From NCBI GenBank assembly GCA_040765725.1, contig JAXGRQ010000003.1, positions 81,363 through 145,362 on the forward strand: a stretch of 64,000 nt of DNA, given 5' to 3'. Below are positions 3,721-55,936 of this stretch, piece by piece (positions within the stretch are counted from its first letter, which is position 1; each line of letters begins with the position of its first letter). The translations under genes were made by a program, and so were the position numbers. The notes beneath the pieces are model-generated. The model saw only the letters and a program-made list of their open reading frames with translations, did no database searches and had not been told where the DNA came from. This stretch comes from Syntrophales bacterium (GTDB taxonomy: Bacteria > Desulfobacterota > Syntrophia > Syntrophales > UBA5619).

Positions 3721-4329
3721 TTATTTTTTTATTTTCCTGCGCAACTCTTTCCAGATCCGTTCGACCTCGCGCGCTGTCTCTTCGATCGATCCCTCGTTGC
3801 GGATCACCCTGTCCGCCCGGGGGATTTTCTGCGCAATCGGCATCTGCGCGGAAACCCTCCGTTCCGCCTCCTCCCGCGATAAGCCGTTTCGAGCCATCAA
3901 CCTGCGGATCTGTTCGTCCGGCGGAATGTAGATGAGAAGAACCACATCCACCATCTTCTCCAGGCCGGCTTCGATCAAAAGCGGGATGTCGGACAGCACG
4001 ACGGCATCCGGCTGTCTTCGTTCGATCTCCGTTAGCCGCTTTCGCCACTCGTCGAAAACCGCCGGGTGCACGATGTCGTTGAGGAGCCTCCTTTTTACCG
4101 GATCCCCGAAGACGATCGCCCCCAGCTTGCCGCGGTCGATCCTCCGGTCCGGAAGCAGAACCGCCTCCCCGAAGTGACGGACGATTTCCCGCCACGCCGG
4201 CTTGTCGGGCTCTTCGACTTCACGGGTCAGTTCGTCAAAGTCGATCAGAACGGCGCCCTTCTCCACGAGCATCCGTGCAACCGTCGATTTCCCGCTGGCA
4301 ATGCCGCCCGTCAACCCCACATTCAGCAT
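3721..4329 (-). CDS. coaE: Dephospho-CoA kinase
   Basis: 202-aa ORF with N-terminal P-loop MLNVGLTGGIASGKSTV and typical CoaE length. Confidence 0.9.
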   Translation of the reverse strand: MLNVGLTGGIASGKSTVARMLVEKGAVLIDFDELTREVEEPDKPAWREIVRHFGEAVLLPDRRIDRGKLGAIVFGDPVKRRLLNDIVHPAVFDEWRKRLTEIERRQPDAVVLSDIPLLIEAGLEKMVDVVLLIYIPPDEQIRRLMARNGLSREEAERRVSAQMPIAQKIPRADRVIRNEGSIEETAREVERIWKELRRKIKK

Positions 4330-5198: not shown

Positions 5199-6119
5199 TC
5201 ACTCCTTCAGGATGGTCGCGTCTCCCGCCACAATGCGATGAATCTCCCCCCGCCCGTCGGCGAGAAGCAGCGCCCCGTCCCCGTCGATACCCTCCATCCT
5301 TCCTTCCCTTACCTCGTCCCGGAACAGAACCCGGACCGTTCTGCCGGCCATTGCCGATCGCGCGAGCCATCCATCCCGGATGGGCGTGAATCCTTTCTTC
5401 ATAAAGGTTTCATACCACTCTTCAAGACGCTCACAGAGCAAAACGACCATCCCCTCCCGGGAATGACCCCGACCTGTCTCCTCCCGGAGGGATGTGGCGG
5501 AATCCCGGTGACCCGGATCAAAGTCCTCCCCCCGGATGTTGACGTTCAAACCGATCCCCACGATCAGAGACGGTCCTCCGCCGTCCATGACCGCCTCTGC
5601 CAGGATACCGCAGACCTTCCGATCCCGAATCAAAACATCATTCGGCCATTTGATCGCAACGCCGTTGGGACACACCGCGGCGATTGCATCCGCAACCGCC
5701 ACTCCCGCAAGAAGCGTGATCTGTGTGAGACCCGGAGGGGCGAGTGCGGGACGGAAAATTACGGAGAGATGGAGATTGCAGCCCGGTGGCGACTGCCAGG
5801 TTCTCTGCAACCGGCCCCTTCCGGCGATTTGCCGGTCGGCAAGAACCATGGTTCCTTCAGGAGCTCCTTCCCGTGCGAGTTTCGCGGCCGCACGGTTCGT
5901 CGAATCCACCTCCGTAAGGCAGTGGAACGGAAACCCGATCTTTTTCCCGGTCATCCTCGACCGGAGGGTATCTACATCGAATTGCATTCTTATCGCAGAG
6001 GTTCCTTTCCGCCACCCCGCTTCCGCTTTCAGACGGTCATATTTGAAGATGCACTTTGGCCATATTGGATTGATGAGATTCCGCGATCGAAAGGCAAGAG
6101 GAAAGGCGGCAACATTCAT
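5199..6119 (-). CDS. birA: Biotin--[acetyl-CoA-carboxylase] ligase
   Basis: GRGRLQRTWQSPPG matches the BirA GRGRxGRxWxSPxG motif, and KWPNDVL is present. The start is uncertain; an internal ATG at 5987 (MQFDVDTL) would give a more typical length. Confidence 0.85.
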   Translation of the reverse strand: MNVAAFPLAFRSRNLINPIWPKCIFKYDRLKAEAGWRKGTSAIRMQFDVDTLRSRMTGKKIGFPFHCLTEVDSTNRAAAKLAREGAPEGTMVLADRQIAGRGRLQRTWQSPPGCNLHLSVIFRPALAPPGLTQITLLAGVAVADAIAAVCPNGVAIKWPNDVLIRDRKVCGILAEAVMDGGGPSLIVGIGLNVNIRGEDFDPGHRDSATSLREETGRGHSREGMVVLLCERLEEWYETFMKKGFTPIRDGWLARSAMAGRTVRVLFRDEVREGRMEGIDGDGALLLADGRGEIHRIVAGDATILKE

Positions 6120-9798: not shown

Positions 9799-10737
9799 TC
9801 AGAACGATCGCCAAAATGCCTCGATCCGCCGGGATGCCTCTCCGAGATCCCGCGGATCGAACCAGACGATCTCCCGGTCCGCGGCAAACCAGGTCATCTG
9901 CCGTTTCGCGTAACGCCGGGTATCCTTTCGAATGTCATCCACCGTCCGCTCCAGGCTCTGCCGCCCGGCGATATGGGCCGTCATGTGCCTGTACCCGAGG
10001 GATTGCATCGGTTTGAGGGATTCCTTGTAACCCATATCGAGCAGTCTCCTCACCTCCGCTGCGAACCCATCCGCAACCATCCGTTCCGTCCGTCGGTCGA
10101 TCCGCTCGTTCAGGCGATCCCGGTCCAGACGGAGGCCGATTCGCAGCGTTTCATAGGGCGCCTCCCGGAAACGGTGGCCCTCCTGAAATTCCACGATCGA
10201 TTTCCCGGTATTCTCGATCACCTCCAGCGCGCGGATGATCCGGATGCCGTCACGGGGGTTGATCCGGTCGGCAGCCCGGGGATCCCTTGCCTTCAGCCTC
10301 TCGTACAGGTGGGCCTTCCCCCGGACCTTCATTTCCTGTTTCAATTCCCGTCTCAGCTCCTCGTCCGCCCCCGGTCCGTCGATCAGCCCCCCCAGGAGGG
10401 CCCGGATGTAGAGCCCGGTCCCGCCGACGATGAAAACCGGTTTCCCCTCACGGTGCAATGCCGAAACGACGCCGCGGGCCATCCCGATATAGCGTGCGAC
10501 GTCGAAAGGTTCATCCGGATCGGCCACATCGAGGAGGTGGTGGAAAACGCGACTCCGCTCTTCCGGCGTCGGTTTCGCCGTGCCGATATTCATGTACCTG
10601 TATACCTGCATGGAATCGGCACTGACGATTTCGCCGCCGTATCTTCCGGCCAGTTCCAGGGCCGCCTCCGTTTTTCCGACGGCAGTCGGTCCGAGAATGC
10701 AGACCACCCTCGGTTTGGGGACATCAAAACCGGCCAT
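9799..10737 (-). CDS. miaA: tRNA dimethylallyltransferase
   Basis: 312-aa ORF with P-loop ILGPTAVGKTEAAL, DSMQVYRYMNIGTAKP and typical MiaA length. Confidence 0.95.
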   Translation of the reverse strand: MAGFDVPKPRVVCILGPTAVGKTEAALELAGRYGGEIVSADSMQVYRYMNIGTAKPTPEERSRVFHHLLDVADPDEPFDVARYIGMARGVVSALHREGKPVFIVGGTGLYIRALLGGLIDGPGADEELRRELKQEMKVRGKAHLYERLKARDPRAADRINPRDGIRIIRALEVIENTGKSIVEFQEGHRFREAPYETLRIGLRLDRDRLNERIDRRTERMVADGFAAEVRRLLDMGYKESLKPMQSLGYRHMTAHIAGRQSLERTVDDIRKDTRRYAKRQMTWFAADREIVWFDPRDLGEASRRIEAFWRSF

Positions 10738-22303: not shown

Positions 22304-22792
22304 ATGGCTGAATTCACGAGAGCATTCATTCACGGTTTGGACAGCAGCAGCAGAGGAACAAAAGGGAGTTATTTCCGTAAGAGATACCCGGGAATGATCA
22401 TGGAGGACTATGCCGGTTCTCTGGAGGAAAGAATGGAAAAACTCAACGCGGACCTTGCCGGGAAGAAAAACCTGATCCTGGTCGGCTCGAGTTACGGGGG
22501 TCTGATGGCGGCGATGTTCGCCTGCAGTCAGGAACCCCTCGTCCGCCGTCTCATCCTTCTGGCCCCGGCCCTCATCCACGGTGATTTCAGTGCCAGCTTT
22601 GGACGACCGGTAAGGATTCCCGTTGTTCTATACCACGGTCGGCTGGACGATGTTGTCCAGCCGGAACCGACTCTACACATCGCCGAGCGCCTGTTTTCCC
22701 GTCTCGACCATCACCTTGTAGAAGACGACCACAACCTTCACCGGATCTTCCCGCTGTTGGATTGGAACGCTCTTCTGGAGATCGAGGGATAA
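22304..22792 (+). CDS. Small alpha/beta hydrolase (YqiA/UPF0227-like esterase)
   Basis: 162-aa ORF with FIHGLDSS, nucleophile elbow LVGSSYGG (GxSxG) and a late HH/D region. Confidence 0.6.
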   Translation: MAEFTRAFIHGLDSSSRGTKGSYFRKRYPGMIMEDYAGSLEERMEKLNADLAGKKNLILVGSSYGGLMAAMFACSQEPLVRRLILLAPALIHGDFSASFGRPVRIPVVLYHGRLDDVVQPEPTLHIAERLFSRLDHHLVEDDHNLHRIFPLLDWNALLEIEG

Positions 22793-44209: not shown

Positions 44210-44235
44210 CCCCGAAACAGAAGTATGGACAACAT

Positions 44236-44320
44236 AACCGCTGCCATTCCCTACGCTGGCATTACCCAGGTCAGGTTCAAAGGGTATCTTCTCAGCCTGT
44301 CCGGCACCCCTTGCATAGGT
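44236..44320 (-). promoter_or_regulatory. TPP (THI-box) riboswitch aptamer
   Basis: Minus strand reads GGGGUGCCGGACAGGCUGAGAAGAUACCCUUUGAACCUGACCUGGGUAAUGCCAGCGUAGGGAAUGG. This matches the conserved GGGGUGC..GCUGAGA..ACCC..GAACCUGAUCUGGAUAAUGCCAGCGUAGGGAA core almost base for base. Confidence 0.9.
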
Positions 44321-44339
44321 TTTTTACATCCATCTTCGC

Positions 44340-46464: not shown

Positions 46465-47820
46465 ATGGCCGGTATCGACGGAGGAGTCCTCTTTTCCCCG
46501 GACCGGCTGCGCCTCTGGACGCAGCAGATCTTCCGGAAACTCGGGGTCGGCGAGGAGGATGCCCTCCTGCTGACCGACTCGCTGATCGAGGCAAACCTGC
46601 GGGGGGTGGACACTCACGGGATCACCCGCGTGCTGTGCGTATACGCGGAAAGAATCCGCAGGGGGGTCGTGAACCCGGAAAGCCGTTTCACGGTTCTGCG
46701 GGAAAAAGCCTCCACCGCGTTGATCGACTGCCACAACAGCATCGGCCAGATCGGCGCGGCAAAGGCGATGCGGATGGCGATCGAAAAGGCCCGGCGGACC
46801 GGCGTCGCCTTCACGGCGGTGACGCACTCCAATCATTACGGGATGGCCGCATACTGGGCGATGATGGCCCTCCCGCAGGGCATGATCGGCTTCAGTTCCA
46901 CCAACGCCCCGGCCGCCGCGGCCCCGACGGGCGGGCGGACGGCGATGTTCGGCACCAATCCGTTCGCCGTCGCCGTTCCCGCGGGGCGGGAGCTTCCGGT
47001 GGTCCTGGATCTGGCGACGACCGTGGTGGCCCGCGGCCGAATCATTCTTCACGCCAAAGAGGACAGGCCCCTGGAGCCGGGTTGGGCATTCGACGAACGG
47101 GGCAATCCCACCACGGATCCGCACGCCGCGTTGAGAGGGCTTCTCGCTCCGATCGGGGGATACAAGGGATACGGAATCATGCTGGCGGTCGACCTGCTCT
47201 GCGGCGTGTTGACCGGCTCCAATTACGGGGCCCACTTTCCCGGCTTTCTGGCGGACAACATGGTCGACCCGGCGGATGTCGGGAGCGTCTTTGCCGCCGT
47301 CTGCGTCGAAAGCTTCATGGACCTGAGCGAATTTACGGAGGCCGTGGACAGGGCCATTCAGGAGATCCGAACTTCGGAAAGGGCCGATGGAGTCCGGCGC
47401 ATTTACATCCCCGGCGAGATCGAATTCGAAAAGAGGGCCGAACGTCTCGCCCGGGGCATCCCGATCCCCGAGCCGGTGGTCCGGGATTTCATCGCCCTCG
47501 AAATGAACTGGCCGTTCCCTTCCCCAAGGCATGACCAAGGAAAACCTTATCCTCTGATCAGTAAAGATGCGCCGGAGATCGTCGAATCGATCCTCCTCGA
47601 TGTCCGGGAGGTCGACAAGGCGACCTGGGAAGCAGCCTCGGCGAGCGCAGGATCTACAAACCTCGGTAGGTCCTTAGTGCAAAAGATGAACTCTTGGCAG
47701 GCATCTCTCGGACCAGCTCTCAAGAACGAAGCCGCATGGAGGGCGGGGCCTGTTCTGATCATTATTCCGTTATGCGCTCTTCATCTTTCAATACCGCAAG
47801 AAAGGCCCTCTATAAAATGA
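46465..47820 (+). CDS. Ldh2-family malate/L-lactate/sulfolactate-type dehydrogenase with an unrelated ~100-codon 3' extension
   Basis: RGVDTHGI, THSNHYGMAAYWA, FGTNPFAVAVP and GGYKGYGIML are Ldh_2 family motifs. ATG at 46465 is preceded by AAAGGAG. Family-like sequence ends near 47510, but the frame stays open into the lower-GC tract. Confidence 0.8.
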   Translation: MAGIDGGVLFSPDRLRLWTQQIFRKLGVGEEDALLLTDSLIEANLRGVDTHGITRVLCVYAERIRRGVVNPESRFTVLREKASTALIDCHNSIGQIGAAKAMRMAIEKARRTGVAFTAVTHSNHYGMAAYWAMMALPQGMIGFSSTNAPAAAAPTGGRTAMFGTNPFAVAVPAGRELPVVLDLATTVVARGRIILHAKEDRPLEPGWAFDERGNPTTDPHAALRGLLAPIGGYKGYGIMLAVDLLCGVLTGSNYGAHFPGFLADNMVDPADVGSVFAAVCVESFMDLSEFTEAVDRAIQEIRTSERADGVRRIYIPGEIEFEKRAERLARGIPIPEPVVRDFIALEMNWPFPSPRHDQGKPYPLISKDAPEIVESILLDVREVDKATWEAASASAGSTNLGRSLVQKMNSWQASLGPALKNEAAWRAGPVLIIIPLCALHLSIPQERPSIK

Positions 47821-47967
47821 ATACATGAAACGGTCAGACACCTTCATTTCGCGAGTATCGAAAATACCGCATAATATGTTCGTCTTTCATTGACATGCGA
47901 TGATACCCCTTTTATAGTCCGGCACGACGTAAATAACATCTCTTCAAAAAATAGAGGGGATATCGGC

Positions 47968-49120
47968 GTGACAAAGCAGACCATATTGGAAGTTGAGGGC
48001 AGTGCCGCTGCGATTGGCCTTGAAAACCACCATCCGTCATAACGCGGCTACCAGGAACGAAGGAGAAAGCATTTGGGTTCAGGCAAAAAGGCGGCACAAT
48101 ACGGGATATGGCGAGGGTTGTCCGAGAGTCTACTCAGCCGGCGACAACATAGAGTCCGGCGTCAAATGGGTTAAGGAAAAATTTTTCCGATGGCCATGAA
48201 TTTTACAACGCTGGATGAGCCAGGGCAGTGGGTATACCGTCATGAAAAAGTCATCGATCGTTATCCGTCGGCATGGTAAAGTGCCGTTGAAAATGGCGAT
48301 AAGCCTGACCTGCTTGCCCGGGAAAATAGCCGTTCCGTTGAAAACTGCTGCGTGATTGAATGGTTGCACGGGTTATGGTCATTACACGGCCGTTCTGGGT
48401 GATGATAAGGTCTGGAAATATACCACCCTGCCGATCAATATCTGATTCGCGCACTTCGGGATTTCAAAGTCAAGCTAAACGGCAATCTGGAACGTGATAC
48501 GGAGAAGATCGATTTGCTGGAATCATTGTCTGCGTAACATCACGCGCCACTCACACGCATTCGTCTTGACGCCAATAATTTATGGAAGGATCGCTGTGAT
48601 GAAGCCATAGACTATACCCGGGCGTTGGGAATCGGTCGGATATTCGCCATGGAAGAATCTGTGGAAGCACGGCATGTCGAAGACATAAGCACCAGTATGG
48701 GCACGGGTCTTCCGTCATTTTGGATGAGAGTTTGTGTACCCTGGATGACCTGGGCATGTTTGAAACTGCGTCCGGTCAATTCATCGCCAATATCAAGATA
48801 TCGCGTTTGGGCGGTCTGATTCGAGCGTTAAGAATGATCAACGAGATTAAAAAACTGGGATGGCCGATTATTGTCGGTTGGTCATGTCGGTGAGACTCTT
48901 TGTTGACCAGGGCTGCTCTTGTGGCCTCCTCTGCCGCCGGAGAGAGCCTGATAGCCCATGAAGGAGCCTTCGGCGACTATCTGGTGGAACGGAGCCAGCA
49001 GAAACCGATGCTGAAGTTCGGACGAAACGGATGCTGGATTTGCGGACCCCCTACTATCTGAAACTGCCAGGGGACTGAAGGTCATCCTGGTCGAAAACTG
49101 GGATACCGGATTCGGCATGC
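47968..49120 (+). pseudogene. Enolase-superfamily enzyme (dipeptide epimerase / o-succinylbenzoate synthase-like) relic with multiple frameshifts and stops
   Basis: Across shifting frames: VPLRLALKTTIRHNAATRNEGESIWVQ...GYGEGCP, FKVKLNGNLERDTEKI, RIRLDANNLW (about 48555), VILDESLCTLDD (about 48714), ANIKISRLGG (about 48785), GWPIIVG. Order and spacing match the family. Possible GTG start at 47968 with AGAGGGGA upstream. Confidence 0.7.
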
Positions 49121-49121
49121 A

Positions 49122-49995
49122 GTGCCGTATGCTCTATACCCTGACGACGGTGCGCCTGACATCTGTTTTCTCGAAATACCTGATCAGTATAAGATTCATT
49201 ATCGACGCGCTGGGGCCATTCCGGAGGGTGAAGATGTGGTGCTGATTTTACACGGAGGTGTCAGAGTCATTCAGGGCTGGCAAGGCCCCGCTGGCAAATC
49301 AATTGCGGTCCATGTCGCCAAACTTAACCGTTATCGCCGCCGACCGGCGGGGCTGCGGATTAAACGAGCAGAGGGGCGACTTGGTCTCGTGCAGGCGGTT
49401 ATTGAAGATGTCATCCAACACGTCGAATTTCTCAAAAGATCGTTCAAACAGGTCCATCTTGCCGGCTGGTGCCAGGGGGCGTAACACGCTGCCGTTGCCG
49501 GGGCTTGAGCGAGCGCCGCTGCCCCCAGTCTGATACTGCTGGATTCCGGGTTTTTTTGGAATGAACGCTTCCGGTCTGTTTTAAGTATTACCGAGAAAAT
49601 CGTCCTGAAGATGATTGCCGAATTCAAACTGAAACCTGAGCGCAATCATGCTCGTATTCTATCCGGCGGAGGCAACTGATTTCACGCCGGTGGATGAATG
49701 GCTTGATTTCTCGTCGAAAAGGATCATCTGAAAACCACCTTAGTCACCTTAAAATCCAGAGTATCATGGATGAAATTCAGAGCCGTGGCTCCGCCATGCT
49801 CCAAAACCGTCTTCCCATACTCGTGATGATGGGGGAACAGGATCGCATCGTGGACAACCGGAAGGTCCTGCATTTCATCGGCCATCTTTTTCCGGGCAAT
49901 AACCATAACCGGTCGGTCACATTGGAAAGCGGCTGCTGCCATACATTTTGAAAAGACGGGAGAGGTCGCTTTCCGAAATCGTAAATTTTATCAGA
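49122..49995 (+). pseudogene. Alpha/beta hydrolase (lysophospholipase-like) relic with frameshifts
   Basis: VVLILHGG (about 49234), VIAADRRGCGLN (about 49329), HLAGWCQGA in place of GxSxG, LPILVMMGEQDRIVD (about 49810) and a C-terminal HFEKTGEVA-like stretch, each in a different frame. Confidence 0.65.
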
Positions 49996-50029
49996 ATCGC
50001 AAGATCAGAATCCATAATCCGGAGCACTG

Positions 50030-52130
50030 GATGGACCAAGACAGTCAGCCAATATGCCGGCAGGGCAATGACCACTCCCGGCTTGCTCCCCGTAGCGACC
50101 CCATTGTGTTTCCACCATGCGGATAGTGATCCGGAATCCCAATCCCGACAAGACCATCAAGCGAAGCAAACTGATCAACCTGTGGAACCATCTTCACTTT
50201 ATGGAGGACATGGTATACGTCCACCTTCATCACCCTCACTATAAAGAGGACCTCCTCATCCAAGCCCATCCGGCTCCCTGCGTCATCGGCTCGATGATTT
50301 GCCGTGCCAGCCGTACGGAAGCGGCCGGCTTGCGGAAATGCGGTTATACTGAACGTTATCTTCTCGGACGGGCTCACGTTGTTTCTCGTACCGACCGAAC
50401 GCAAGGATGTCCAAAAAGATTCGCCTTACCTTCCAGGCGCCCGATCAGGGGTACATCCTGGTCAGCGTCCGGCAAGGCGCTATCGTTGCCAAGGCATCCA
50501 TGCCGAGGTGGTGCAGAATGGATTTCGTGCCAGGGGACAGGTGACGGATTTCAGCGCCTTGGCCTTGCCGTCCAGGTCACCCCTACGGCACCCGGTCTCT
50601 TCGCTGGTTCAACGCCGACAGCCAATCGACAGTCAATCTGAATCGGGGTGAACAGATTGTTTTTTCGGCAGCTCGTCGCTGTATCCGGCAAGCATCGGAT
50701 CAAGTGCACGGGATATCGTCTTTGCCCCCATGATCAGCCAGATGAACCGGTCCCCGAAGAAAAATGGCGCAATCCCCGTGTTCGTCACACCTTTTCCGAA
50801 TATTACCTTTTTAACCATCCGACCATAAATAAGATGGTTCAACTGGATATTCATGATCTTCTGTATCAGGCTTTGCCGCTTATGTTTCGACTGACGAAGA
50901 TGTCCTCATGGTGGGGATGCCGCTGACTATCCCTGACCTGACGATGAATTATGCCGGCGCTTTGAAAATAAAAATGCAAGGCCCAGATTCTCTATCGCCG
51001 TAAAGAAAAAGAAAAAAATTCGCTACGGTTTTGTCATCCTGGATATGGATGTTGTCAACTATGACCGATTGAGTCATATTGTCATGAACGTTATCGATCC
51101 CAGAACTCCATGTTGCCGACAAATATGCGAACCAACTATGGGAATTTCTTTTCGAAAGCGGGTTCATTTTACTCCCAAGAAATATAATTTGGTTCAGGCT
51201 TACCGGAGCCCTATGAAAGAAATCCTTACCGGCGGTTGTATCGTGATAACTCCGGAAATCATCACCCAAATAACTTATCACGAAGCGAAACGGCCGGATC
51301 TTACGGGCACGCCTCCATGGTCCGATCCCACAAACGGACTTGGATGGTTCATCATCTGGCCGCAAGACCCCCTGAACAAAAGAACTGGCTTCAAGTCCTT
51401 AAACAGGTTATGCATTATTTCAATGGTCTCTATCGTCTCCCAACGGTCGGGATGGATTACATGATGTTCTATTTTCGACCAGAGAACCGTTTCCCCGATC
51501 ATTTTTTCGGTGGCTTCGCCAGGCATTTCAAGAACCCCCGCGCCTGTTCCCTCGATCTCTTTTCATACCTTAATTTTCCGACTTCCGATGAGAAAAATAC
51601 TCCCGGAGGGGTGGCTGCTCGAGCCGCACAGGCGAAGACTCTGAAGAGTTAAGCCGTTTTTATCGGAAGGTATCCGACGGCCTTCTGCTGGATGTTTCAC
51701 TTGACAAGGAGAAGTGAGGATGGGAATCTCTGTCGCAGCCGTATGCCTGGCATGGGTTCATCAGAGCTGCCAAGGACATTCCCTTAAACAAAACGGGAGA
51801 TTAAAGGCTGCGCTTATTGTGAACCGATCGGATCCGTCCGCCTGTCGGACTTTCTGAACGGGATCAAGATTCTGGTTAATGACGCAGCTGGCCACCCGGA
51901 AGTCCTTGTCAGCGGCCGTTTCTCAATGGTCCGGTTTTTATAAGATTGACAAGATACCGCTCCTCGTTTATCCATCGCATTATTTGGAAGATAAAGGCGT
52001 TCCCTTGGAAAACGATACAATCTCTGGATCATTCATGGTCATTATGCTCCGGGAATATAGTGAATACATGATGGAAAATCGAAGCAGCGAATCAGATTTC
52101 ATCCGTTTTCTCATCAAGAGATACCTGAAA
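50030..52130 (+). pseudogene. Unassigned relic(s); coherent protein-like reading on the plus strand, family not recognised (weak PilZ-like and GNAT-like impressions only)
   Basis: Protein-like stretches in changing frames: INLWNHLHFMEDMVYVHLHHPHYKEDLLIQAHPAPC, GQVTDFSALAL, WLQVLKQVMHYFNGLYRLPTVGMDYMMFYFRPENRFPDHFFGGFARHFKNP (about 51386-51540), EELSRFYRKVSDGLLLDVSL, LKAALIVNRSD, IPLLVYPSHYLEDKGVPLE. Confidence 0.3.
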
Positions 52131-52800
52131 CTACGACGGACGATACCTACCTATATAATAGCCATTATCAAAAGCTATGTGGAGTACCTGAAGAGGTATC
52201 TTCCGGAGGTCGATATCGATCCTTTGCTGAAATATGCGGATATTTGCGACCTTACTCAACGAACGACGAGGGTCACTGGCTGACCAGACCAGAGCGATCG
52301 CTTTCACGATATCCTCGTGAGAACGACTCCAGATCACATATATCGCACAAAGTTGGGCGCTTTTCTCGTTACCTTGCGCCTCCGGCGCCTTGGGACAATA
52401 TATGCTGGACCACAATTCCGGCGACGGCGTATGGCGTTCTTGTAGGAAGATCGATTGCTCGCCTCAGCCGGAGCGATCCTGAAGACCCAAAGCCATCGAG
52501 AAAAACAAGATCTATGGGCGAAGGCCACGATGGCCAGGGGTGGCTGAAAAGCCCTATCAGTGTCGTTATCGGCTCGGTGCAATCTCGGCCTTGGCGAAAC
52601 TTTCCACCCAGAAATTGCTGGTCACTTCGACCATTCCGTTCGTGACCCAAGGGCGGTGATTGTTGCCTTTATACAATCACCTGGGGAAAAACCCGCACCT
52701 TTTTCTTGAAACGTATCCGCAATTATTATTTTTGAATGTTCTCATACCTGCGCCATCTTGTTCAGTTTCATACAACAAGCTTATTGGGGCATCCTGACCT
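52130..52800 (-). pseudogene. Acyl-CoA dehydrogenase internal fragment (both ends missing, frameshifted)
   Basis: Minus-strand reading gives IIIADTFQEKGAGFSPGDCIKAT (52676-52699 encodes GAGFSPGD; compare TEPxAGSD...T.A). WVTNG lies at 52635-52649. FLDGFGSSGSLRL...ILSQGAGG and RRSLSKVANIRIFQQRIDIDLRKIPLQVLHIAFDNG resemble eRxqFGkpiaxfQxiqxxlAdm. Confidence 0.5.
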
Positions 52801-52836
52801 TATCGTGTGTGCTTATCGGGATGGGTTTAACGCTGT

Positions 52837-54450
52837 ATGCCGAAAATTTGGAAGAACGACCTGCTCACCAACATCTACAACCAGGGGGATGCGGCGGAAC
52901 GTCTCCTGGATCAGATCAACAAACGGTACGATTTGAAGCCCTGCTGATCCAGGAGATCGGTCAGGCATCTTCCACCATGCCCCAGGTTGATCAGCTCTCC
53001 GGTATATTATGGAGTCGTTGGTCGGCGAGACTCAATTTGACCGGGGCATGATCATGCTGACCAACAAGCAAAAAGACCGCCTCGTTTATTCGGTCAGCTA
53101 CGGATATAATCCAGGCCGATGAAGATTGGCCTGAAGAATATTCAATTTCATCTGGATAATCCTCACTCAAAGGGCACAGCGGTCGCTGCCTTTAGAAATC
53201 AGAAACCAGTTTTGGTCAACGATCTCTTCACGACATCGAGAATGACCGTCGCCGAGGAGTCTTGATTTGTTCGCACCATGGGGAGTCAGTCTTTCATCTG
53301 CGTTCCCATCGTATATGCGGGGGAATCCCCGTGGGAGTCCCGTTGTGGATAATGTTCAATCCAAGAAACCGCTCGATCAGACGGAGATGAGTCTGCCGGA
53401 TGGGGGATCGGTTCTACAGATCGGGATCAGCATCAAGAACGCCGTTTCCCATCAAAGAATCAGGGAAAGGAAGAGCGCTTCCGATCACCAGCGAAAACGC
53501 ACCGGACATCATTTATACCCTCGGCATCAATGGGGAATTTACCTATATCAACTCCTGCGATTGAAACGATCCTGGGATACCGTCCGGAGGACATCATCGG
53601 CAAATATTTTATCGATATTGTAGGAAAGAAAGACATGTACAGAAGCATCAGCTGCCTTCAAGCAGGTCAGATCGCAAGCAAACCATCAAGGGAGAAACGC
53701 ATCCGCTGCATATGGATGGTTCGGCGTTTTGGTATTTTCAGCTCGTTGTGCGCTTAACTTTGATTCCGAAGGCAATTTTATCGGAGTGCTTCGGTATTCA
53801 ATCCGACCGACATCAGAACATCGGAAATGGAGCTGAAAAAGGAGCCTGATAAACTGCAATCGGCCATGAAAGGAAAACATTGACGCGATTTCATCATCGT
53901 TGAATCCAGAGATCCTTATACAGCAGGTCACTAAAGACGTGGCACAGCCGGGCTACCGCCATTGCCGGCGAATCGGGTTTATCGGAAGAAAGAATCGACT
54001 TTTCATCCGAAGGGCAGTCTGATTCACGACATCGGGAAAATATATATTCCCGCCGAAATTTTGACAAAACCGGCGAAATTAAACGAACTAGAAAACTGCC
54101 AAGATGAGATCTCATCCGGCGGTGGTTTTGAAAATACAAACAAAGTCGACTTTATTCCAGTGATTGTGAACACGGTTTATGAACACCACGAAAGAATGGA
54201 TGGGTCGGGCTTATCCATTGGGAATAACCGGCGAGAGAATCTCTTGTGAATCAAGAATTATCGCGGTTGCAGACATGGTTGAAGCATGATCAGCTACCGT
54301 CCACTGGCTGCGCGGGCACGACGGCAGCGATCGAAGAAATAAAAACAACGGGAATTGCAGCGACACCATGCGGTGGATGCCTGGGTTCAGTTTTGGTTAT
54401 ACCAGTTTTAAGTTCAAGCAGCCTGATGTGTTCCCCAGCATCGACATGTA
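52837..54450 (+). pseudogene. GAF-PAS-HD-GYP signalling protein (c-di-GMP phosphodiesterase type) relic with many frameshifts and stops
   Basis: GAF: IMESLVGETQFDRGMIMLTNKQKDRLVYSVSYGYN, HSKGTAVAAFRNQKPVLVNDL, SFICVPIVYAG. PAS: ISTPAIETILGYRPEDIIGKYFIDIV. HD-GYP: ESRDPYTAGH (53902-53931), LIHDIGKIYIPAEILTKPAKLNELE (HDIGK at 54026-54040), YEHHERMDGSG (54184-54210). All are in domain order but in different frames. Confidence 0.7.
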
Positions 54451-54706
54451 GTGCCTGTCTTTGCCGTCTTTGTTCCTTACCCTTCCCCATCCGAAAAATT
54501 TAGAGCTGTCGGCCATCACCGGGCCCATCATCTTTAGGCTCTCTTGGTCAACACACAAAGTTGCTCTTTTATTCTCCATTGGCGTTTTTTTATGTCCTTA
54601 AATCCGCTTTGGTGAAAATGATACCGCAGCACCCGGCATTCCCTTTGTCTTTCACGAAGCCCCGTCTGCACTGGAAAACAGCCTTTGAATTTGTGACAAA
54701 GGTGCA

Positions 54707-55936
54707 TCAATCTCTATATCGGGAATTTCGCGAAAGCAGCGCGACGACCTCGATATGAGCGGTCTGGGGAAACATATCCAGCGGCTGGAGCTTTCTGAGG
54801 ACGTAACCGCAACCTGTCAGAAACCGGACATCCCGCGCCTGCGTTGCGGGATTGCAGGAGACGTAGACGATCCGATCCGGATGAAGGGATGCCGCCGCGT
54901 CCAAGGCTCCATTGCTGCAGCCCTCCCGCGGCGGATCGAACAGGATTACGTTCGCGGTGCGACGGCGGTCCAAGAATTCATTCCGAAGGAGAACGTTCAC
55001 ATCCCCGTGTAAAAATCCGGCCTGCGGAATCCTTTCGCGATTCAGATTGATCCTGGCGCAGCGAACGGCCTCCCGATCCCCTTCGATCCCCGTCAATGCA
55101 GCGGCCTTCGGCCCGAGAAACAGGGAAAAGAGGCCTGAACCCGCGAACGCATCGATGACCGTCTCGCGCCCGGTGAGCCCGCACATGTCGACGACCTGAT
55201 CGACGAGTTCCCCGACCAGTGCGACGTTGGCCTGGAAGAAACCCCTTCCGGGAACCGTCAAGCGACGGCCGCGGACTACACGGATCACGTCCGGCGGTGC
55301 TCCGGGGCCCGTAAAAACCGCCGTCGGGGACTCGGACGGTTCATCGGACCAGATGACCTGACGTTTCCCGGACGGCCGGACCTGCCTTGACCGGAGTGCC
55401 TTCCGGAAATCGTCATACTTCACGTTCACCGATGCCTCGACTACTCCGCAGGATTCGATTTCGATGAGCTCATGGCTTTTGCCGCCCATCAGACCGGCAC
55501 GATAATGTCCTTTTCGGCCGCCGGCCAGATGGAACTCCGCCTTTCCGCGCCAGCCGAAAGGACGCGGAGAGGGGATGATTTCCGCAATGGGGATCCGGGA
55601 CAGGCCGGCAATCCGCCGGAAGGTCTCCTCGACCTGCCTCTGCTTGAGCGCCAACTGATGGGGATACGCGATATGCTGCATCCCGCAGCCGCCGCAGCGG
55701 GTGTACACGGGGCAGAGCGGCCGGACCCGATGGCGTGACGGGACCGGAATCCCGATCGGTTTTGCCCGCGCATACCGTTTCCGGACCTCGGTGATCTCGA
55801 CCTCCGCTTCGTCCCCGTCCACCGTGAACGGGACAAAGAGGACCCGATCGGAAACCCGCCCCACGCCGTCGCCGCCAAAGGCCACATCCCCGATCCGGAC
55901 ACGAATGCAATCCCCGGTTTTGAACTCTTCTTCCAT
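54707..55936 (-). CDS. 23S rRNA (uracil-C5)-methyltransferase, RlmD/RumA family (TRAM + Fe-S + SAM MTase)
   Basis: N-terminal TRAM (IRVRIGDVAFGGDGVGRV), Cys cluster CPVYTRCGGCGMQH, SAM motif DAFAGSGLFSL, and DPPREG with a catalytic-Cys region YVSCNPAT. Confidence 0.85.
   Translation of the reverse strand: MEEEFKTGDCIRVRIGDVAFGGDGVGRVSDRVLFVPFTVDGDEAEVEITEVRKRYARAKPIGIPVPSRHRVRPLCPVYTRCGGCGMQHIAYPHQLALKQRQVEETFRRIAGLSRIPIAEIIPSPRPFGWRGKAEFHLAGGRKGHYRAGLMGGKSHELIEIESCGVVEASVNVKYDDFRKALRSRQVRPSGKRQVIWSDEPSESPTAVFTGPGAPPDVIRVVRGRRLTVPGRGFFQANVALVGELVDQVVDMCGLTGRETVIDAFAGSGLFSLFLGPKAAALTGIEGDREAVRCARINLNRERIPQAGFLHGDVNVLLRNEFLDRRRTANVILFDPPREGCSNGALDAAASLHPDRIVYVSCNPATQARDVRFLTGCGYVLRKLQPLDMFPQTAHIEVVALLSRNSRYRD

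Follow-up and report, generated by a model that had tools for sequence, protein, structure and literature searches.

A tract of disrupted reading frames in a Syntrophales contig: very probably an artefact of the consensus, with a real, strain-variable operon beneath

Pseudogene tracts of reductive genomes, such as those of Mycobacterium leprae and Sodalis, consist of adjacent genes which have lost their intact open reading frames (ORFs) and are recognisable by homology. Natural decay of this kind is dominated by substitutions, is biased towards deletions over a wide range of sizes, usually extends genome-wide and proceeds slowly enough for the flanking sequences to diverge as well. A tract of ~7.2 kb between a gene of the Ldh2 family and an rlmD-like gene, located on contig JAXGRQ010000003.1 of a Syntrophales bacterium (assembly GCA_040765725.1), has the same appearance; the 64,000 nucleotides (nt) of this contig which were analysed (positions 81,363 to 145,362) are referred to as the window, and its numbering is used throughout. 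Pseudogenes can also be spurious, being generated by the insertion and deletion (indel) errors of long reads, an effect which grows as coverage falls (PMC8103633; PMC6487183; PMC12007338), with the error of raw long reads amounting to 5–10% (PMC6487183). A preliminary description of the window had offered two explanations for the tract, a decaying foreign island and a locally bad consensus. The second is supported by intact, near-identical copies on short-read contigs (L092–L094) and by lesions that are indel-rich, blind to codons and confined to the tract, and we consider it highly probable that the tract is a real operon, variable among strains, whose consensus sequence is faulty. With the same assurance, the pseudogene cluster as such should be regarded not as a real feature but as a matter of assembly quality.

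Three genes beneath the disrupted frames

As read, the longest ORF in any frame between ~47.6 and 54.7 kb spans 174 amino acids (aa; 50117–50641), and in all other 2-kb bins of the window an ORF re-scan found open frames of 167–584 aa. The G+C content per kb is 0.47–0.53 in the tract versus 0.56–0.64 around it (~0.50 overall, compared to 0.58–0.62 in the flanks), with sharp shifts near 47.55 kb and at 54.6–54.75 kb. The absence of an intact gene and the lower G+C, both reported in the preliminary description, are thereby confirmed. Frame switching, also reported there, is equally evident, at a denser spacing (approximately every 65 nt) than the 100–250 nt given for a frame change or stop. Pfam searches with stop-masked six-frame translations yielded weak plus-strand matches to MR_MLE_C, Abhydrolase, GAF and HD_5, and a PDB sequence search with translations of the tract yielded an HD-GYP match (5z7c, E=3e-7; also 4mcw); such single-frame matches are mostly weak, too weak to decide the identities of the genes. 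No Pfam family was matched in any minus-strand frame of the tract even at E<=1, and the minus-strand acyl-CoA dehydrogenase relic proposed earlier does not exist: its two motifs are read from one and the same piece of DNA in different frames, their order is not that of the family, and this DNA encodes the N-terminus of a plus-strand gene (g3, below).

By tblastn, the tract is colinear with proteins encoded on a related contig, L081, and comprises three plus-strand genes which lie side by side in a single operon, denoted g1, g2 and g3. Instead of a mosaic derived from five or more unrelated genes, as had been proposed, the tract contains these genes and a cyclase remnant of ~115 nt. The features of the locus are as follows.

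46465–47534, plus strand: Ldh2-family gene (malate/L-lactate dehydrogenase type 2; Pfam Ldh_2, E=7e-119)
47501–54734, no strand: variable segment containing all lesions; 7,234 nt versus 173 nt in the closest operon-less relatives, delimited by the blastn breakpoints of L088 and L089
47554–47670, plus strand: class III nucleotidyl cyclase gene, 3'-end remnant situated between Ldh2 and g1; ~115 nt, by blastn to L040
47968–50014, plus strand: g1, fusion of an enolase-superfamily protein (MR_MLE C-terminal domain) and an alpha/beta-hydrolase; at least 23 frameshifts
50031–52133, plus strand: g2, 704-aa PilZ-domain protein; 31–32 frameshifts and 0–1 in-frame stops
52133–54451, plus strand: g3, GAF-PAS-HD-GYP protein; 41–44 frameshifts, one in-frame stop (52733), TAG at 54449–54451
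54452–54706, no strand: spacer separating g3 from the convergent rlmD, colinear with L092; 13 substitutions and seven small indels, none of them beyond 54644
54707–55936, minus strand: rlmD-like 23S rRNA (uracil-C5) methyltransferase gene, intact; homolog P0121 is 99% identical at the aa level

The lesions were counted with a custom-written protein-to-DNA aligner which allows frameshifts, using several intact references (L081, L084, L090 and L095). Over the three genes, ~96–98 frameshifts were placed versus 5–7 in-frame stops; the shifts of +1 and −1 are balanced and gene lengths remain within a few codons of the references. After correction, aa identity reaches 64–69% to distant homologs and 76–89% to L095, and the similarities to the enolase superfamily, alpha/beta-hydrolases and GAF/PAS/HD-GYP proteins which the preliminary description had recognised are real (64–88% aa). 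The frameshift-aware alignment and windowed G+C scan that it had suggested bear out the disrupted frames and the drop in G+C. The corrected codons display a normal coding pattern, with G+C at the first, second and third positions (GC1, GC2 and GC3) of 0.51–0.57, 0.37–0.43 and 0.56, respectively. On intact operons, the aligner placed 0–1 frameshifts; on a noisy contig used as a positive control, L083, it placed 2–5 per gene, a comparison that is weakly informative as the middle gene there is non-homologous. In L083 (ENA ERZ25039602 contig_84700), ABC-transporter genes are fragmented alongside the operon genes, and in L040 (MFD00709.bin.2.122 contig_167021) the GAF-cyclase gene that follows rlmD is broken into pieces in several frames; both look like noisy long-read assemblies.

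A hand-stitched translation of the enolase-like part of g1 matched intact proteins at E=1e-136. These homologs, of ~400 aa and 65–67% identity, come from Syntrophales/Smithella-type metagenomes, and several (P0102, P0108 and P0118) carry a fused alpha/beta-hydrolase. The C-terminal MR_MLE barrel scores 17 bits in a single frame of g1 and is clear via the homologs (PF13378; 69 bits in P0108). Frameshift-aware alignment of g1 with L095 gives 88–89% aa identity, with in-frame stops at 48277, 48535, 49482 and 49506; of the 82 enolase columns that are at least 97% conserved among 91 homologs, 80 are kept in the window, as in intact homologs. All NCBIfam equivalogs score far under their cutoffs on the g1 homologs, and to judge by its domains g1 would belong to the muconate-lactonising/OSBS-like branch of the superfamily. 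The second gene, g2, has retained its length (2,103 nt versus 2,112 nt) and is colinear with L081 11294–13408, L084 6723–8837 and L095 5830–7944. The PilZ domain scores 25.6 bits in intact homologs, with a cutoff of 22.5 bits, and RPARRYRCQG...DFSALA in the window, spotted by eye, may correspond to the RxxxR and D/NxSxxG motifs of PilZ; there is no NCBIfam match and no curated family beyond PilZ for g2. Frame correction of g3 restores GAF, PAS and HD_5/HD-GYP domains with the HDIGK and HHERMDGSGYP motifs, HHERMDGSG/YPLG being recovered across one frameshift, and HD_5 is matched at 119 bits by P0241, a homolog with an intact frame. Read from domains alone, g3 is a predicted phosphodiesterase of cyclic dimeric guanosine monophosphate (c-di-GMP) regulated by GAF/PAS, and the other functions suggested for the operon derive from domains in the same way.

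The same gene order is conserved on L081, L084, L086 and L087: an enolase-superfamily gene, to which the hydrolase may or may not be fused, precedes a gene for a 704-aa PilZ protein and a gene for a 767–779-aa GAF-PAS-HD-GYP protein. The operon spans positions 10001–15711 of L081 and 5406–11173 of L084, where it resides at another genomic location, and positions 3781–10277 of L095. We regard the three-gene operon of the window as real, native and, most likely, intact.

Spectrum and limits of the lesions

P0241, which was found with the corrected g3 translation and is 84% identical to this error-laden query, is encoded on L092, L093 and L094, short-read contigs from three ENA samples on which an intact g3 is followed by a spacer of 262 nt and rlmD. 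L092, the closest relative, aligns with the window in one piece (51690–55313). Over rlmD (54707–55313), 602 of 607 nt are identical, with five substitutions and no gaps (0.8% differing), whereas the ~3.0 kb of the tract differ by 110 substitutions and 106 gap events, a total of ~7.3% made up of ~3.5% small indels and ~3.7% substitutions. Single-base gaps comprise 44 deletions and 29 insertions, two-base gaps 21 deletions and 10 insertions, and two further events are longer, so that 104 of the 106 measure 1–2 nt; deletions outnumber insertions by 66 to 40. No enrichment of indels in homopolymers was found. The density of lesions is 14–32 per 300 nt up to position 54644 and zero thereafter.

The lesions also disregard coding constraint. 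In g3, which shows 86 gap events, the 87 substitutions relative to L092 are distributed over codon positions 1/2/3 as 20/36/31; in a natural contrast, rlmD of the window versus that of L090, the corresponding numbers are 84/52/175. When g3 was placed in a multiple alignment, 122 of the 216 mismatches between the window and L092 fell on sites at which five intact relatives all agree, as against 20 of 269 for the natural pair of L090 and L092. Private out-of-frame gaps occur in the window only, and the g3 genes of L092 and L093 are identical.

At the left edge, the lesions begin at ~47500, within the Ldh2 gene. Frameshift-aware comparison with the Ldh2 of L089 matched 355 codons with a single frameshift after ...DFIAL, followed by NELAVPFPKA*; the gene is otherwise intact, with one 1-nt deletion at 47500–47503 and its true stop at 47532–47534. 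The end of Ldh2 at ~47530 given in the preliminary description is correct once this frameshift is repaired; as read, the ORF runs falsely on to 47820. The lesions therefore extend into the last 11 codons of Ldh2 at one side and through the g3–rlmD spacer at the other, where the last one relative to L092 is at 54644, and their limits are the breakpoints of a presence/absence polymorphism (see below) rather than the ends of genes.

Genuine recent pseudogenisation, whereby the native operon was inactivated and drifts neutrally towards the loss observed in L088 and L089, has several points in its favour. The operon is dispensable, being wholly missing from close relatives; its frames are disrupted relative to intact orthologs (~96 frameshifts and a handful of nonsense codons, five in frame); substitutions relative to L092 show no codon-position bias, as under neutral evolution; and a real old cyclase remnant adjoins the operon. 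We nevertheless judge this scenario improbable, since only five stops stand beside ~96 frameshifts, the conserved residues are kept, and the indels, almost all of 1–2 nt and unassociated with homopolymers, are accompanied by preserved gene lengths and by neither larger deletions nor insertion sequence (IS) insertions. Furthermore, the lesions reach the spacer and the last codons of a functional Ldh2, ending at the polymorphism breakpoints. Because the flank is 99.2% identical to that of a genome with an intact operon, ~3.5% indels cannot represent natural accumulation; the time was too short for a change of ~7%, and the boundary is abrupt. Finally, the spectrum is that of raw long-read error and not of bacterial mutation, because indels and substitutions are nearly equal in number (106 to 110, ~1:1), whereas bacterial indels are, according to the figure that PMC8009600 quotes from Sung 2016, ~10-fold less frequent than substitutions (~1:10). 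Slippage and 454-type error are ruled out by the missing association with homopolymers, an observation which does not by itself separate raw-read error from other causes.

The lesions would be real, too, if the 7.2-kb dispensable c-di-GMP operon had undergone localised, indel-rich hypermutation which produced 1–2-nt indels and substitutions in about equal numbers within sharp boundaries, the remainder of the genome being 99% identical to strains whose copy is intact. To our knowledge, no targeted hypermutation process of such kind exists in bacteria, and we hold this scenario to be very unlikely.

As for the preferred explanation, an uncorrected consensus, the 7.2 kb carrying the operon would have been left at about raw-read accuracy while the flanks were polished. 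Whereas the identities of the genes, their synteny, the spectrum of lesions with its sharp boundaries, the intact near-identical copies and the presence/absence polymorphism are shown by the comparisons, we infer sequencing or consensus error as the cause, and likewise the step of the pipeline that failed. Most likely, 47.5–54.65 kb was covered by a small number of long reads, or by reads that had been collapsed or insufficiently polished; the consensus would never have been corrected, and the apparent pseudogenes would be artefacts of it. In the preliminary description, intact ORFs recovered from re-polished reads were to signify an intact accessory island that had been badly assembled; intact frames have been obtained here by proxy, via relatives and not via re-polished reads.

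Several points weigh against this explanation. The error is deduced rather than observed in reads, depth or base quality. The excess of substitutions alone fails to reject neutral decay (3.7% in the tract; ~1.5% at third positions of the flank, corresponding to only three changes), so that the rejection rests on the indels. The lack of homopolymer enrichment disfavours 454, Ion Torrent and the residual error of polished nanopore sequence, and requires either long-read error at a nearly raw level or a consensus that was badly collapsed. The remainder of the window looks clean, and a local cause must therefore be assumed. The comparison with L092-type contigs covers 51.4–54.7 kb only; for g1 and the 5' half of g2, for which there is no reference above 90% nt identity, the case is built on L095 (81–83% nt) and on the ratio of frameshifts to stops.

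The locus in related genomes

Relatives of the locus were retrieved by protein search with the flanking rlmD, followed by contig look-up. For 18 kb, L095 (GCA_002424545.1) runs colinearly with the window, through TatD, NMO, Ldh2, g1, g2, g3, the convergent rlmD, TraB and onward. On L090 and L091 (rlmD 76% identical at the aa level) and on L092–L094, g2–g3 or g3 converge on rlmD, and the flanks of L095, L090 and L092 are 80–99% identical to those of the window. In L095, a run of N at ~5441–5465, a scaffold gap, cuts g1 into calls of 564 and 84 aa; this is a gap of the assembly and not a natural break.

Two relatives, L088 (98.7% nt identity) and L089 (92–94%), are devoid of the operon, and their Ldh2 and rlmD genes are adjacent and convergent. 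Homology with the window breaks exactly at 47500/47501 and 54734/54735, the 7,234 nt between these points being replaced by a GC-rich sequence of 173 nt (L088 1433–1605; L089 1974–2146), which provides rlmD with another C-terminal tail of 30 aa (TPAGTGGAAV...FRVP) and Ldh2 with other last 11 codons. To judge by these comparisons, the operon is a native presence/absence polymorphism, variable among strains of a species-level group. Comparison of the Ldh2–rlmD interval among relatives, as recommended in the preliminary description, shows the same operon intact in L095 and 173 nt in its place in L088 and L089.

The same comparisons bear on the proposed decaying foreign island, that is, a horizontally acquired mosaic of unrelated fragments from a donor of lower G+C. 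The G+C of the tract is indeed below that of the flanks, GC3 of the corrected tract is 0.56 compared to 0.67–0.81 in the flanking genes, and L088 and L089 are without the tract. However, L095, L090 and L092 have the same operon in the same slot between Ldh2 and rlmD, and the intact operon of L095 shows the same drop (G+C 0.47–0.53 and GC3 0.57–0.60, versus 0.62–0.65 and 0.76–0.78 in its flanks). Low G+C is thus an old, or intrinsic, property of the operon at this locus and signals neither a recent foreign arrival nor AT-biased decay, the latter being ruled out as its source by the composition of the intact ortholog. Moreover, the genes are colinear and functionally linked and form no mosaic, the acyl-CoA dehydrogenase fragment is spurious, and hallmarks of integration are absent: no tRNA gene was detected in the whole window, no integrase or transposase was matched by Pfam in any stop-masked frame of the tract, in agreement with what had been seen previously, and there is no direct repeat. 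A foreign island is, accordingly, the least credible of the alternatives, with hardly any probability left to it.

A chimeric misjoin, in which the assembler would have spliced DNA of another organism between Ldh2 and rlmD, would fit the sharp boundaries, the existence of a same-species genome without the operon (L088) and the third-position divergence from L090, which is lower in g3 (19%) than in rlmD (40%). It is contradicted by L092 and L093, independent short-read assemblies which span g3, the spacer and rlmD colinearly, including a spacer segment of ~170 nt, by L095, which spans both junctions, and by the alleles of the window rlmD beside the junction, which are of the L092 rather than the L088 type. 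Because the right junction is spanned by L092 and L093 and both junctions by L095, the architecture is genuine, and a misjoin appears highly unlikely. The ~170-nt spacer segment (window ~54545–54717) is common to the window and L092–L094 and missing from L090, L091 and L095; it exchanges the last codons of rlmD (SRNSRYRD* versus SRNSRSRERS*), and neither the window nor the retrieved loci yielded a second copy of it.

The cyclase remnant between Ldh2 and g1 is of a different nature than the lesions. Its ~40–47 codons are unbroken in L095 (3350–3490) and distributed over two frames with indels in the window; by tblastn, the L095 spacer matches the C-terminus of the L040 cyclase with 55% identity over 47 aa (E=5e-13). 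The corresponding ORF of L040 (9239–9526) looks like a cyclase C-terminus, a family assignment made by reading the sequence. The remnant is an old, genuine relic common to the window and L095, and the tract contains no other of this kind. L040 itself was obtained from a scan of GTDB genomes with rlmD, in which the best relative was 47% identical and uninformative for synteny; the contig later proved key to the remnant.

Three further observations concern the surroundings of the operon. At five positions of rlmD (54818, 55162, 55169, 55197 and 55238), L092 equals L088 and the window differs by a single base; these could be private single-nucleotide polymorphisms of the strain or residual consensus errors in the otherwise clean flank. 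The sole Rfam family in the window is a thiamine pyrophosphate (TPP) riboswitch (RF00059; 67 bits, above the gathering score) at 44229–44321 on the minus strand. An ORF of 162 aa at 22304–22792 on the plus strand, in a stretch of slightly lower G+C (0.53), matches only the central part (~36–135 of 245) of alpha/beta-hydrolase profiles and may represent a truncated gene.

Implications and comparison with known systems

A pseudogene-like block of lower G+C within a clean contig can mimic a decaying island, and the present case, in all probability a native operon at raw-read accuracy, calls for caution. Annotation of the tract as pseudogenes would wrongly drop a c-di-GMP module from the inferred physiology and inflate the pseudogene count. 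The analysis has two by-products. The first is a presence/absence polymorphism with exact breakpoints in a Syntrophales-like species. The second is an uncharacterised conserved module, in which the gene for the 704-aa PilZ protein lies between those for a GAF-PAS-HD-GYP protein and an enolase-superfamily enzyme, the latter fused to a hydrolase in some cases. It is widespread in Syntrophales/Smithellaceae-type metagenome contigs and without a characterised member among the libraries searched. The module may link c-di-GMP signalling to the conversion of small molecules.

Among described systems, reductive-genome pseudogenes differ from the tract in the very features that define its lesions: here, indels are about as numerous as substitutions and measure 1–2 nt, gene lengths are kept and the flanks are 99% identical to those of a genome with an intact copy. 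The closer parallel is with false pseudogenes arising from uncorrected errors of long (nanopore or PacBio) reads, in which dense 1–2-nt indels likewise fragment ORFs, errors ignore codon position and conservation, and deletions exceed insertions. The total difference of ~7% falls in the 5–10% range of raw reads (PMC6487183); such false pseudogenes are worse at low coverage (PMC8103633) and, like those described here, are found by comparison with intact homologs (PMC12007338). Unlike in the known cases, the errors form one 7.2-kb block in a clean contig, which coincides exactly with a strain-variable segment, and, unlike in polished nanopore assemblies, they are not concentrated in homopolymers. 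With regard to the operon underneath, g3 resembles sensory HD-GYP c-di-GMP phosphodiesterases (5z7c, 4mcw, 4r8z) in the combination of an HD-GYP domain with GAF and PAS domains, but, in contrast to the solved examples, proteins of the g3 type have an uncharacterised architecture of 770–780 aa, and their genes follow those of an enolase-superfamily enzyme and a PilZ protein of 704 aa.

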